Positions 28,328-34,922 of a DNA stretch of 64,000 nt are shown one piece after another. The stretch is taken from assembly GCA_963737655.1 (NCBI GenBank), contig CAVTTN010000002.1, forward strand, positions 4,416,001 to 4,480,000, given 5' to 3'. Origin of the DNA: an uncultured Planctomycetota bacterium. GTDB lineage: Bacteria; Planctomycetota; Planctomycetia; Isosphaerales; Isosphaeraceae. The position numbers and the translations under genes were made by a program. The notes beneath the pieces are model-generated. The model saw only the letters and a program-made list of their open reading frames with translations. It did no database searches and was not told the DNA's origin. Numbering within the stretch: the stretch's first letter is position 1; each line of letters starts with the position of its first letter.

Positions 28328-28463
28328 CTCTGTAGAAAACCCATTGAGAATGAGGAAACGAGTAGGTCCGACTTCAGTCGGGCCGACGAAAATCCCTTGT
28401 TTCGTCGGCCCGACTGAAGTCGGACCTACTCGTTTCGATGCTTCGAAGGGTCTTCTTCAAGAG
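28328..28463. repeat. REPIN/MITE-like element, second copy
   Basis: CTCTGTAGAAAACCC...GAGTAGGTCCGACTTCAGTCGGGCC...GGCCCGACTGAAGTCGGACCTACTCG, as at 7209-7345. Confidence 0.82.
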
Positions 28464-28878: not shown

Positions 28879-29250
28879 GCCTTGGCTCTCCGTCGAATCG
28901 CCGTCGAGGGCCGAACTTCGGCGGAAGATACCCCGGACCGCCTCGTCATGCAATGCGGACCGGATCGGGGGGCCGGGTCCGGTTCCTTCTCGGAGGAGGA
29001 TTCCTCGGGAGCGTCCCGGGTGGCGGGGATTCCCCCGGAGTCACGCCCCTCTCGGCCGCGCGACATCCGCCGGACCCGCGAGGGGCGGACCACCGGCCCC
29101 GAAGGCCGAACCCGTTCCACCGAGCACGCTTCCGAGGAATCCTCCGTCGAGAAGGAACCGGCCTCGCCCCGCCCGGACCGGGGACTTCCCTTCGGCCCAT
29201 CTGGTGCTTATGCTTGGCCCCGCGACACCCCTCTCGTGCGAGGAACCGTC

Positions 29251-30294: not shown

Positions 30295-31014
30295 TCACCA
30301 TCCTCGATTCCGAATCCGCCGCCCGGGGTGAGCTTTCCGGACCTCGGCATCCGTCGGATCGATTCGTGGAGGTACTCCGCCTCTCGGCGGATCTCGGCCA
30401 ACGGGCGGGAGGACGGCACGCGTCCGAGCTCGCCACGCAATCCCGCAGACGACCAGCGCCAGGACGCAGGCAGCGATCCCCGGTCGGGGCGGGTTGAGGC
30501 CGTCAAAAGCCCGCGATGGGATCAGCGCCTTGCCCGTCCACTCCGGTGATGAGGCCAGGATCTCGAAATCCTTGACCTCGACCTCTCCGGAGGCGTCGAT
30601 GATCTGGACGAGCTTGCCCGAGTGACCGACGGGGCGAATCGCGACGAAGTGGCCACTCGGACCCATTTGAAGATGGACGATCGCCGGTCTGTCGATGGGC
30701 CAGACCCTCTCGTCGAGTCGGACGCCGCGGAGGCAAAGGCCGAGGGAGGACGCAGCCGTGACGATCTCAGAAAGCGAACGGTTGTCTGACGGCTTATCGC
30801 CCATCGCACGAGCCACGGAAGACAGAGGAGCCGGAATCTCCTCCAATTGGCATAAGACGTACAGCGAGGCGACACTACAAGGCGGAGTGTCCGTGTTCGT
30901 AACGACCTCCGCGCTCGATGCCTGCGGCCCTCCACCCAGGAAGCAGAGGACGAGAAGGGAGGGTCGAGAGATCGCCTTCGAGATCCTGCCCAAAGGGCAT
31001 GTGATGGCTGGCAT
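30295..31014 (-). CDS. Stand-alone C39-family cysteine peptidase with N-terminal hydrophobic signal and C-terminal TM
   Basis: PPCSVASLYVL (Cys), SLSEIVTAASSLG, PAIVHL...GHFVAI (His), VQIID (Asp), WTGKAL; TGATG overlap with the upstream gene. Confidence 0.8.
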   Translation of the reverse strand: MPAITCPLGRISKAISRPSLLVLCFLGGGPQASSAEVVTNTDTPPCSVASLYVLCQLEEIPAPLSSVARAMGDKPSDNRSLSEIVTAASSLGLCLRGVRLDERVWPIDRPAIVHLQMGPSGHFVAIRPVGHSGKLVQIIDASGEVEVKDFEILASSPEWTGKALIPSRAFDGLNPPRPGIAACVLALVVCGIAWRARTRAVLPPVGRDPPRGGVPPRIDPTDAEVRKAHPGRRIRNRGW

Positions 31015-32135
31015 CACTCCCTCCACTTTCGGAAACCGGCGACGATGAGGCAGGCCGACCCGATGGTGAGCAAGCCCAGCCGGGCCGCCCCGGCCCAAGT
31101 CCACGATTCGCGCGAAGGGGCCGAGGCTTCGAGCGCCTTCGCCTGGCCATCGGCTTCCGCGATCACGCGGCGGATCCGATCTTCCACGCCTCTTGGGCCG
31201 GATCGTCGAGGCCCCTGGGCCTCGAATCGCTCCTTCGATTTCCGGAGTCCGTCCGAAGCCGGGGTCGCCTCCCAATCCAGCGAGAAGCGGCGGTCCGGGA
31301 GATCCTGATTGACGCGGACGCTCCCGTCCACGACCTCGAACGTCTCCTCGAAGACGGGCGTCTTGAGGAACCTGATCCCCGTGGGCTCAATCGTCAGGAA
31401 AGAGAGCCGCCGGCCGCGAACCGGTAGCCAGAAGACCTTATCACCGACCTCGAATCTCCCCAGACCGATCTCGTCGGCCTGCATCCGAAGGTTGTCGGTA
31501 TCAAAATAGTCGTATCGCAGGGGGTTCGCCCCTCGCTGCATGTCCAACCAAAACTTATGCGTATAAGCATCTTTCTGAAACCCGGGCGGCCGGTACACGA
31601 TTTCGACCTTGAGGCACATCCGCTCCGAGCAGCGTTCCCATCCGGCCACCCGTACGTGATAGAGGCTCGGGTCCTGTCTCAGGAGCAGGAGGAAGTGAGG
31701 GAGCAGGAAGATCCGAAGCGGCGAGCGCTGCTCGTCCAAGGAGCCGATGTACCCAGAGACCGCCTCGCGCCGGGACAACTGGAGCCTGCCGTCGGGCCTG
31801 CGATTCTGCCCCCGGACCGAGCCGTTCAGCAGGCATTTCGTCGCGTGCGTCAGGGGAGCGGTCGGGTTGGAAGGCTGGACGTAGACATCGATGTGGGCGG
31901 CGTCGTCCCGACGATAGGCGAACGCCCCCTGATACGACTCCTCGAAGGGATCATGAGCGCCGGGAGGCACCTTGGTTTTTCGGTAGCGGTGATACATGCT
32001 CCCTTCGTATATGAACTCGACGTCGTCCAGTTCCTGCCACTGGTCCCGGACGAGCACCGCCAGGCGTTCGGGAGTGATGTCCGTCGCATCCAGGGAGCCG
32101 AGGAGGCATGAGACAACTGCCACACCGATTCGCAT
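31014..32135 (-). CDS. Exported LolA-fold-like protein with C-terminal TM anchor
   Basis: Signal-like N-terminus; 'GWE......CLKVE...KFWLDMQRG.NPLRY' resembles LolA-superfamily beta-sheet motifs; ends LGLLTIGSACLIVAGFRKWRE; GGAG RBS. Fold is inferred. Confidence 0.6.
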   Translation of the reverse strand: MRIGVAVVSCLLGSLDATDITPERLAVLVRDQWQELDDVEFIYEGSMYHRYRKTKVPPGAHDPFEESYQGAFAYRRDDAAHIDVYVQPSNPTAPLTHATKCLLNGSVRGQNRRPDGRLQLSRREAVSGYIGSLDEQRSPLRIFLLPHFLLLLRQDPSLYHVRVAGWERCSERMCLKVEIVYRPPGFQKDAYTHKFWLDMQRGANPLRYDYFDTDNLRMQADEIGLGRFEVGDKVFWLPVRGRRLSFLTIEPTGIRFLKTPVFEETFEVVDGSVRVNQDLPDRRFSLDWEATPASDGLRKSKERFEAQGPRRSGPRGVEDRIRRVIAEADGQAKALEASAPSRESWTWAGAARLGLLTIGSACLIVAGFRKWRE

Positions 32136-32231: not shown

Positions 32232-32723
32232 TCAATCGCCTCCGCCGCCGGGGGCGGCCTGATTCCAATATTGCGTGACGTTGTCACAGAACGTATCTCC
32301 CGGGGTATATTGGGCACACTTGGGCTGATTATTGACGATCGTGCAGGCACCGACCGCGTTCTTGCCGCATGGCACCGTCTCGCCGAACTGGATGCCGGGC
32401 GTCGCGACGTTGTCGGGATCGGTGTAGACCTTCATGTCCGTCGGATCGGCGGCGTTGGTGCATGCGATACAGTTCGTGTTGCCCGAATTCTGAACGGTGC
32501 AGCCATAGGTCCCGACGAGCGGAGGCGTCGGGGTGAGGTTTTCGTCGCAGGACGACAGGGAGTTGAGGAATGTGTGCCGGTCGGCGCCCGAGGTGGTGTC
32601 GAGGTCCGCAAGGCTCAGCGAGCCGAGGCGATCGGTCGGCTTGGCGGCGGACATCCACCCTGCCACGGCGAGCGCCGTGAAACCGATGATGGAAAGCCGC
32701 GAGACGGCGGAGTTGCGGGTCAT
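32232..32723 (-). CDS. Secreted Cys-rich precursor with double-glycine-type leader (163 aa, 8 Cys)
   Basis: Hydrophobic residues ~10-27; LSLADLDTTSGA at 36-47; 116-aa Cys/Thr/Asn/Pro-rich remainder; GGAG RBS. Confidence 0.75.
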   Translation of the reverse strand: MTRNSAVSRLSIIGFTALAVAGWMSAAKPTDRLGSLSLADLDTTSGADRHTFLNSLSSCDENLTPTPPLVGTYGCTVQNSGNTNCIACTNAADPTDMKVYTDPDNVATPGIQFGETVPCGKNAVGACTIVNNQPKCAQYTPGDTFCDNVTQYWNQAAPGGGGD

Positions 32724-32848: not shown

Positions 32849-33865
32849 TCAATCGACGAGTTCCGAGCCATTGCGGCTGCCCAGGCCGCGCCAGACGGGC
32901 TGAGAAATCGATTCCGGGACGAACCGGACCGAGCCGTCCGCCATCAAAACGTTCACGCCGCCGGGGTGCAGGCTCCGGGCCGTGGCCATGCCGAGCGCGG
33001 CATACATCGAAGGGGCGAGGCAATCGGGCACCGAGCCGTTGGGGGCCTGGGCATGGTTGTAGAGGGTCCGCTCGCGGCCCGACCAGAACCAGCCACTCCC
33101 ACCGCCCACGTAGGCCCCGACTCCGGGCCGGGCGAACGCCTGACATCCGTGGACGAGCTGATCCGCCGTGAACAGGGCGGTCCGCCACGGATAGTAGTCC
33201 CGAGCCGGGATCGGGTCGTCATCCCGGCCCGAGCCGCGGAGCCGTTCGCTGAACGCGGCGGTGTGGGAGAACCCGTCGGGGACGGAGGCGGCCAGGACGT
33301 AGGCGGCCTCGGGGAAGAGCCCGTTGCCGCTGTCCGAGAATTCTGCGGAAGTATGGGCGCCGGGGCCGATGCCCACGTTCCCTCGATAATTGTTCCCCGC
33401 CCACCCCGGCAATCCGCCGTCGCTCGGGCAGAGGAAGAGATCGACGACCGTGGCGGCGACCGTCGCGTTGGCGGCGTTCCGCGACTCCTCGGAGGCGCCG
33501 AGGCTCGCGATCCCCAGGGCGTTCGGGGGCAAGGTCCCGATGGCGAAATTCGCGGAATCAAACAGGGTGGTCTGGTCGAGATAGGGCAGGAGCCGGGAAT
33601 GGACGGAATAGAATCCCATGTAACCGACCCGACCGTTGGTCATGTTCGACGGCGGGAACCAATCGTTGTCCCGGATGTATCCGTGGAGCGCCAATCCGAT
33701 CTGCCGGAGATTGTTGCTGCATCGGGCCCGCCTCGCCGCCTCGCGGGCCGCCTGGACGGCCGGCAAGAGCAGCGCGGTCAGGATCGCCGTCAAGCCGAGG
33801 ACGACGAGGGCCTCGATCAGCGTGAAGCCGGCGCGTCGGCTCGCCGGGCCCAAGGAATGGGTCAT
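32849..33865 (-). CDS. DUF1559 prepilin-type N-terminal cleavage/methylation protein
   Basis: [11 protein letters not shown]...[39 protein letters not shown]-terminal [16 protein letters not shown] (H-X9-DG). Confidence 0.93.
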
Positions 33866-34922
33866 CGACGGGCCTCCCCGGAGTTGGGGACCTTGAGCAG
33901 GTGGACGACGACTCGGGCCTGCTCCGGGTCGTCGGTCTCGATCACGACATCGCCCGCCTCCGCATCGCGGGGCGGGCCGATGGACAAGCCGATCCGATGG
34001 AGACCCGCGGCCCCGGAGGTGCCTCTCGTGACCTCGACGAATCGAGGGCTCGTGATCCGCACGACGCGGAACGGTATGCCGTCCGACCTCAAGAGGATCG
34101 ACCGCTTGACCTGGTCCCCGGATTCCCCGAAGACGAGGGAGGGAGGGAAGGCCCGGATCTTGGGAAGCACTTCCCAATTCAGAACGTGTCGGTATGGTGC
34201 GTCCGAGGACCAGGTGACCGTGATCTCGCCCGTTCGCTGTCCCGGCATTTCTCCGGGCGGTATCTCCACTTCGATGTCACGGATCGTCTCCACCAACCCC
34301 TCGGGCAGCGAGCGGGATGTTTCGGGCCCGGCGAAACGGGCGGATAGGGGACTCGCGGCGAGGACGGCCCGAGGGCCACTTCGTCCGAGCTGGCCCAGCC
34401 GACGGCTCGTGATCCGGAGCCGCCGTCGGCCACTCCTGTTCACGACGACCACGCTCGACGTCCCCTCGGAATCGATTTCCGACGCCTCGAAATCGGAGAA
34501 GAGATTCGCGCTGAGGGTGTACAGGAAGACCGGACGATCGGCCGAGGCCGTCTCGACCGCGAAGGCGAACCTCCTGGGACCCGTCTGTCGTCCGGCGTTG
34601 AACCGGACTGGCACCCGGATGCTCGCCCCGGCCGGGACGACGTCCGGCAGCGGACCGATCGACGAGCAGCACGGTATCCTGGCAGCCACCTTGGTCAACT
34701 TTAGCGGGGACGACGAAGCGTTTTCCAGCAAGAAATCGTGAGTGATAGTCTGATCATGGCCTAGCACGAGCCCGAAATCAAAATGCTGAATCGAATCCCC
34801 CGCGACCTTCTCGGGGGCCGCCAGCTCGACCCCAGGAGAGACATCGATCCGGTCCGTCGCGGGCCGAGAACAGCCGGCGATCATATATATATATATATGA
34901 TCGAAAAATATTTCCTTTGCAT
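33862..34922 (-). CDS. DUF1573 Ig-like domain lipoprotein, out of frame at an (AT)8 tract in the signal-peptide region
   Basis: FDFGLV...F.LEN....PLKL......PCC...PG; lipobox IAG|C. The ATG at 34922 with GAGGA RBS reads [13 protein letters not shown] as assembled. ATGA overlap with the DUF1559 gene. Confidence 0.75.
34878..34903. repeat. (AT)8 microsatellite inside a perfect 26-bp palindrome CGATC(AT)8GATCG
   Basis: Read directly; AT tract at 34883-34898. Confidence 0.95.

Follow-up and report, generated by a model that had tools for sequence, protein, structure and literature searches.

A conserved double-glycine-type leader behind a Sec-like segment in a Cys-rich protein of a planctomycete C39 peptidase cassette

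The window, the whole 64,000-nucleotide stretch of Isosphaeraceae DNA analysed here, encodes a 163-residue protein that carries a motif of the double-glycine leader type behind a hydrophobic N-terminal segment. The observation is real and conserved. Our analysis supports the double-leader reading first proposed for this protein, with cleavage predicted at the end of the motif. The explanation that we favour, with moderate confidence, is a prepro-protein that would be matured outside the cytoplasm by a periplasmic C39 peptidase and whose core would be displayed at the surface. The gene is the third in a co-oriented five-gene cassette (DUF1573, DUF1559, precursor, LolA-fold, C39), flanked by an unrelated plus-strand gene and ffh. 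The features are listed below in window coordinates.

33862..34922, minus strand: DUF1573 Ig-like lipoprotein, first gene of the cassette, with a lipobox; the ATG at 34922, which has a ribosome-binding site, is out of frame
34883..34898, no strand assigned: (AT)8 run in the lipoprotein signal, candidate phase-variation switch
32849..33865, minus strand: DUF1559 prepilin-like protein of a cassette-specific subfamily, with an N-methylation motif and an H-X9-DG C-terminus
32232..32723, minus strand: precursor gene, 163 aa, with signal, linker, double-glycine-type propeptide and Cys-rich core
32643..32723, minus strand: precursor residues 1-27, a basic n-region followed by a hydrophobic segment, read as a Sec signal or a signal-anchor
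32583..32618, minus strand: precursor residues 36-47, carrying the leader motif (L(-12), L(-7), T(-4), G(-2), A(-1)), with cleavage predicted behind A47
32235..32582, minus strand: precursor residues 48-163, predicted mature core, beta-rich, 8 conserved Cys, net charge -7
31014..32135, minus strand: LolA/DUF1329-fold periplasmic protein, 373 aa (model pLDDT 90.5), with a C-terminal membrane helix
30295..31014, minus strand: stand-alone C39 peptidase, 239 aa (PF03412, E 1.6e-6), with an N-terminal signal and a C-terminal hydrophobic anchor
Cys 30879-30877, His 30651-30649, Asp 30597-30595, minus strand: C39 catalytic residues

This is apparently an undescribed planctomycete envelope cassette: literature searches, with subscription journals and supplements largely outside their coverage, returned no description of it, and the available portions of PMC5352709, PMC10632474 and PMC3482391 mention DUF1559 or C39 and not this cassette.

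The precursor ATG is preceded at about 10 nt by GGAG. Re-read on the minus strand, residues 10-27 (LSIIGFTALAVAGWMSAA) are hydrophobic and residues 48-163 comprise 116 aa with 8 Cys and the C-terminal end APGGGGD, all as claimed at the outset. Between them, residues 36-47 (LSLADLDTTSGA) close in GA, one of the two endings, GG or GA, by which double-glycine leaders are recognised. The structural model (pLDDT 78) predicts a beta-rich core, a helix at residues 7-25 and a short leader helix at residues 38-43, the last at low confidence (pLDDT about 57). Comparison with Pfam and NCBIfam yielded no fitting family (no Fap match in any of 82 family members), and a match to the methylamine dehydrogenase small subunit (E 0.025, 1/82 precursors) was treated as chance. 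Neither Foldseek against the PDB nor a search of viral models gave a fold match for the whole-precursor model, and a wide structural aligner reached a best Z of 3.1; as these searches used the whole precursor and not the core alone, the absent match does not show a new fold. Atlas searches were likewise without usable match. The cores make up a family of small scaffolds, rich in disulfides, that has yet to be classified.

A full HMMER scan over 1.84 billion representatives with the precursor as query gave 16 matches including the query, and of the 15 others 14 share the precursor build; the 742-aa P0017 among the matches was dropped as unrelated. Word-index searches were nearly empty (the query itself as the one match, and 4 matches in another run). 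Alignment of the HMMER relatives shows no variation at G46 or at any of the 8 Cys, and very little at L41. To avoid selection by the motif, loci were fetched mainly through the neighbouring DUF1559 subfamily: 79 metagenome loci, and 60 regions hand-picked for flanking DNA from 95 matches to the subfamily. Eight further loci were fetched via the peptidase and are biased towards its presence. Whatever Cys-rich gene occupied the slot was taken, giving 81 distinct proteins with a hydrophobic N-terminus, or 78 after merging above 60% identity; 6 more slot proteins, frameshifted or truncated and with no in-frame hydrophobic segment, were set aside.

Of the 78 slot proteins, 65 have the pattern hydrophobic(-12)-L(-7)-G(-2) downstream of the hydrophobic segment, against a mean of 9.2 and a maximum of 17 in 500 shuffles. 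The pattern occurs in 4/66 N-termini of the LolA-fold proteins and in 18/61 of the peptidases, just 1/61 when G/A/S is required at -1. An alignment of 82 precursors, which omits eight degenerate or doubtful sequences (L049, L063, L138, L144, L153, L163, L194, L196), shows where the constraint lies. G46 is invariant, and this G(-2) is the most conserved non-Cys position of the family. Position -12 is L in 62, V in 7 and I in 7; position -7 is L in 71 and M in 7; position -4 is occupied by V/I/S/T/A, and R stands at -3 in 48. Position -1 is more relaxed (A 24, L 15, S 13, G 12, T 6, R 6), being G/A/S in 49/82 and L, T or R in 27/82. After the predicted cut, +1 is D in 35 and N in 24. The motif noted originally is present, with L(-12), L(-7) and G(-2) conserved, while S(-11), found in 24/82, and D(-8), at a variable position, belong to this protein and are not family features.

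A position matrix built from 81 relatives, with this protein held out, places its best site exactly at G46 and ranks the precursor 1 of 1,209 signal-bearing ORFs in its own genome, a heuristic set that includes some non-genes. The loose pattern matches 78 of the same 1,209 ORFs and is by itself weak evidence; the support rests on conservation. Those 78 matches are what speaks for a chance resemblance in an ordinary secreted protein, a reading that we regard as negligible given conservation far above the shuffles, the top held-out rank and the linkage to C39. The original prediction turned in part on whether homologs keep the L..L....G spacing, and relatives do retain it (65/78; G46 invariant, n=82).

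The cores behave differently from the leader. Conservation is 1.93 bits in the leader against 0.9 bits at non-Cys core positions, and median identity between cores, which range from about 85 to 150 aa, is 21%. The Cys count is even in 66/74 precursors, and the first core Cys lies 12-14 residues past the Gly in 54/74. Cores are acidic, with a net charge of -3 or below in 52/82 and +3 or above in 1/82. The expectation of a conserved leader joined to hypervariable Cys-rich cores therefore holds for the leader; free hypervariability does not, as Isosphaeraceae cores share an 8-Cys skeleton.

The C39 gene lies two genes downstream of the precursor, its start overlapping the stop of the upstream gene. 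The product matches PF03412 at 28.5 bits (curated cut-off 22). Of its relatives, 65/66 match the profile at E up to 0.1, and the relatives share a median identity of about 41%. The catalytic triad is kept (Cys 64/66, His 66/66, Asp 59/66). An N-terminal hydrophobic segment is found in 57/65 relatives and a C-terminal one, followed by basic residues, also in 57/65; hydrophobic segments at both ends would place the catalytic domain outside the cytoplasm. The nearest solved relatives are ComA, PCAT1 and a double-glycine protease domain. An oxyanion Gln six residues before the Cys is described for ComA (excerpt of PMC8277102); a Gln within -8..-4 of the Cys occurs in just 2/64 of the cassette peptidases, and this one has Asn at -6. 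No ABC ATPase motifs were detected in 51 cassette loci, within the DNA fetched. Elsewhere in this genome (G000 C2, about 6006032-6009900), a separate membrane-fusion-like gene precedes a frame of 822 aa with a C39 domain, which probably encodes an ABC exporter of the conventional peptidase-containing kind. NCBIfam matches among the 66 C39 proteins are weak: NF058616 C39_FapD in 7, PA2778 (NF033920) in 4 and FilB (NF050078) in 1.

The order DUF1573-DUF1559-slot-LolA-C39 recurs throughout the loci, fetched mostly via DUF1559. The 373-aa protein resembles LolA folds (Foldseek E 2.7e-9; Z 16.5, rmsd 3.2, 211 aligned residues); against FapF, for which it was the sole cassette partner folded, Z was 6.8. 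C39 lies in cis in 63 of 67 distinct precursors with sufficient downstream DNA, counted over kin that are not independent. Two of the four exceptions have a degenerate site, and the other two (L142, L176; genomes 60-68% complete) a perfect motif. Among 10 distinct cassettes with an empty slot, C39 is kept in 4 and absent in 6. Since the genomes are related and incomplete, the linkage between precursor and C39 is suggestive only. Peptidase identity correlates with leader identity at rho 0.18 and with core identity at 0.07, over pairs that are not independent, and we give this difference no weight.

Four cassettes (L037, L143, L147 and L162, the last identical to L025) have an intact C39 and no precursor in the slot or in the fetched DNA; there the peptidase may act on a substrate in trans or on another target. 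In L044, L159, L168, L172, L173 and L195, DUF1559 is followed directly by the LolA-fold gene, with neither precursor nor C39, and such reduced cassettes suggest that DUF1559 and the LolA-fold protein form the core unit. C39 is fused to DUF1573 in six loci (L204, L210, L215, L222, L223, L078) and shares one frame with DUF1559 in L221; these fusions support a functional link among the cassette genes. Clustered or tandem cassette copies with differing cores, and two tandem precursors with near-identical leaders, occur among L180 (G071 C1 442100-453500), G053 C2 at 3.29-3.31 Mb and L210:4622-5593. This genome holds a second cassette (G000 C2, about 1.439-1.443 Mb; L001:6846-11375), whose precursor is split over two frames with the motif retained. 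It has a G12 run before the DUF1573 domain, and the frame breaks in its DUF1573 and precursor genes may reflect decay or assembly error.

The peptidase profile matches 60/121 Isosphaeraceae genomes at E 0.001, weak matches counted, and the cassette DUF1559 subfamily 47/121 at 1e-50. Neither is found in three congeners (genomes 71-96% complete), and the subfamily appears in 3/400 other genomes of the phylum at 1e-12. More distant C39 genes are common (49/121 genomes of the class). Cassette GC is 0.63-0.69, against 0.69-0.70 in the flanks. In other planctomycete families, a signal-plus-leader Cys-rich gene stands near a C39 gene in 9 of 21 hand-picked loci (7 by a matrix score of 6 or more, 2 by eye), the 9 coming from four families. 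Their cores are unrelated to those described here, several of their leaders end in true GG, and one is picked up by the CCRG-2 leader model NF033456, though under the cut-off (E 5.5e-4). Unrelated cores behind the same two-part N-terminus imply that the architecture is wider than Isosphaeraceae and that the leader is the portable part. Signal-bearing small Cys-rich proteins with no recognisable GG-type motif also lie near C39 genes, at L079:1140-1595, L210:1901-2347 and L222:4610-5266. Promoter, terminator and repeat scans at the cassette gave nothing above chance. Elsewhere in the window, a perfect 37-bp inverted repeat with an 8-nt spacer (28355-28436), possibly a terminator or REP-like element, comes right after a glyoxalase-like gene, and an imperfect 66-nt inverted repeat pair (28967-29173) lies between that gene and the next.

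The first gene of the cassette carries a simple repeat. No run of at least five AT units other than its (AT)8 was found in the 7.63-Mb genome. With this run in the signal sequence, the ATG at 34922 does not share a reading frame with the DUF1573 lipobox and body. In 33/76 loci the 250 nt that precede the DUF1573 domain contain a run of at least 8 nt. The corresponding counts at the other three cassette genes examined are 1/93, 1/68 and 1/67 (3/228 in total), and the background rate is 0.019 per 250 nt. The runs are poly-G, poly-C, poly-A or AT at varied places, and these different types and places suggest repeated origins. In a count over 71 loci (18 without a recognised lipobox, 8 with a run upstream of it), the lipobox is out of frame in 12/16 where a run separates it from the domain and in 5/29 where there is no run. 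Homopolymer sequencing slips could partly account for the out-of-frame states, not for the presence of the runs. Contingency repeats of this sort mark surface-exposed products under phage or predator pressure. We take the DUF1573 repeat as a phase-variation signature, and the cassette as probably phase-variable.

These observations can be assembled into a maturation pathway. The hydrophobic N-terminus would, very probably, route the precursor through Sec, after which the leader helix would sit at the outer face of the inner membrane. There the anchored C39 peptidase is likely to bind L(-12)/L(-7)/x(-4) and to cut after G46-A47, a step that we propose with good confidence. The cut would free a 116-aa acidic beta protein, probably with four disulfides. 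Its further handling would involve the pilin-like DUF1559 protein, the Ig-like DUF1573 lipoprotein and the LolA-fold carrier. The most likely role for the core, to which we give about even weight, would be that of a variable surface-exposed subunit or adhesin, switched by slippage of the repeat in the first gene; the surface part of this role is read from the cassette neighbours only. With a C39 predicted to face outward in the same cassette, a cleavage tag that bacteriocin exporters normally use intracellularly seems to have been repurposed for the maturation of a cell-surface protein. Several findings count against this explanation. The residues L, T or R found at -1 in 27/82 precursors are not ones that classic C39 peptidases are described to accept, and the oxyanion Gln is kept in 2/64. 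The four distinct cassettes with intact C39 and an empty slot imply that the peptidase may have other substrates, two of the four C39-less cassettes (L142, L176) keep a perfect motif, and long repeats are not evident at the cassettes of other families.

The same data can be read in other ways. The hydrophobic segment may be a cleaved signal or an uncleaved anchor, and the signal-peptidase test cannot separate the two, as sites showed no enrichment in precursors and none in controls with presumed signal peptides; a Tat-like motif occurs in 0/82. Were the segment an uncleaved signal-anchor, C39 would be a dedicated sheddase whose single cut detaches the core from the inner membrane, with one processing step in place of two stacked leaders and the C39 cut in common with our favoured explanation. 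The median uncharged run of 18 aa, the 9-residue linker to the motif, the presence of A-x-A in only 13/68 precursors and the membrane anchoring of the peptidase itself all fit such an arrangement. S-A-A at residues 25-27 of this precursor, however, fits a signal-peptidase site, and we consider an uncleaved anchor possible, if somewhat unlikely. A different departure would keep the C39 in place as a chaperone, or let it cut another cassette protein, so that the motif served docking only and signal peptidase did all the processing. The relaxed -1, the missing oxyanion Gln and the four cassettes with C39 and no precursor are in keeping with this, and C39-like domains without catalysis exist (excerpt of PMC8277102). 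Yet the peptidases retain the catalytic Cys in 64/66 and the His in 66/66 at about 41% median identity, and in the precursors G(-2), expected beside the cut, is the most conserved non-Cys position, with D/N at +1 in 59/82. We therefore hold docking without cleavage to be distinctly improbable.

A further reading leaves the periplasmic processing as we propose it and lets the core diffuse away to act as an antagonist or a signal, whether bacteriocin-like, defensin-like or as a ligand. In its favour, leaders of the GG type are the classical mark of bacteriocins and pheromones (excerpt of PMC10233263), the cores diverge fast (median 21% identity), and the cassettes are patchy (0/3 congeners) with GC below their flanks. 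The cores are acidic, however, no small immunity-like gene is visible in the five-gene order, and the partners that stay constant are one pilin-like protein and one Ig-like lipoprotein, the latter with the repeat switch; a diffusible product seems to us unlikely.

The cassette pairs a predicted periplasmic C39 with a positionally fixed candidate substrate and dozens of natural variants, enough to put the rule to the test in a single peptide-cleavage assay. A periplasmic C39 peptidase has a precedent in FapD, for which the available literature leaves substrates and recognition sequence open. The cassette also ties DUF1559 to a defined cargo. DUF1559 is a planctomycete family of undefined function, with 68 paralogs in Planctopirus (excerpt of PMC10632474). 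The repeat signature, in turn, suggests that an envelope structure of free-living planctomycetes is subject to phase variation. More tentatively, and with less than even confidence, we propose a class-wide planctomycete pathway free of ABC transporters, in which a periplasmic leader/C39 system would act on Sec-exported disulfide-rich subunits bound for a phase-variable DUF1559/DUF1573 appendage, and removal of the propeptide would trigger assembly. If true, periplasmic C39 peptidases would have their first defined substrates, and the function of the large DUF1559 family would for the first time become approachable.

Parts of the cassette resemble several known systems. As in contingency loci, an envelope gene has the runs at its 5' end and occurs in and out of frame in different genomes; known loci are, in the sources available, mostly from host-associated bacteria, whereas the planctomycetes here are free-living. 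FilB (NF050078, of a putative pilus system) and PA2778 (NF033920) are also stand-alone C39 proteins with weak profile matches to ours, but they are proteobacterial and work with other partners, on substrates not rich in Cys. The genes beside them encode FilA and PA2779, Sec-exported proteins that may share such a Leu...Gly element, and our literature searches found no paper on that motif.

The leader itself is closest to those of the PCAT/AMS systems (ComA, PCAT1, CvaB; class II bacteriocins, microcins), with hydrophobic residues at -12/-7/-4 and Gly at -2, and the cassette C39 has the Cys-His-Asp triad and is a sequence relative of the ComA and PCAT1 peptidase domains. PCAT peptides are defined by a leader that forms the N-terminal 15-18 residues and replaces a Sec signal. 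In the cassette, by contrast, the leader is internal: each of the 81 in-frame slot proteins has a hydrophobic segment ahead of it. The C39 comes from a gene of its own, carries its own signal and a C-terminal anchor, and has no ABC domain. Classic C39 peptidases act on leaders that end in GG or GA, and microcin PDI has back-to-back leaders that are both of the GG type (excerpts of PMC10233263); the cassette has a relaxed -1, no oxyanion Gln and larger, acidic, disulfide-rich cores. Judged by its sequence, the precursor works like one half of a double-glycine leader/C39 pair, yet it does not belong among PCAT-exported peptides.

The nearest precedent for the peptidase is FapD of the Pseudomonas Fap amyloid system, a stand-alone C39 that is exported by Sec and depends on its catalytic Cys in the periplasm (excerpt of PMC5557850). 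The placing of a stacked leader after a Sec signal, presented originally as a departure from the usual arrangement, is borne out family-wide; its periplasmic C39 partner is already precedented by FapD. The target of FapD is left unclear, and Fap proteins are said to be without canonical C39 sites, in the portions of PMC5557850 and PMC6173800 available; the supplement of PMC5557850 includes a figure of a FapE motif that is relevant to this precedent, and a 2026 preprint (10.64898/2026.10.01.755530, in part) describes FapD only as involved in precursor processing. The likeness lies in a stand-alone C39 that is periplasmic by its sequence (N-terminal hydrophobic segment in 57/65). In contrast to Fap, the cassette partners are pilin-like, Ig-lipoprotein and LolA-fold proteins with no FapF-type barrel recognised, and the precursors have an 8-Cys skeleton and no amyloid repeats, whereas the amyloid subunits FapB/C/E carry Asn/Gln repeats. 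The cassette differs above all in what it offers its peptidase, a candidate cut site that is conserved and fixed in position.
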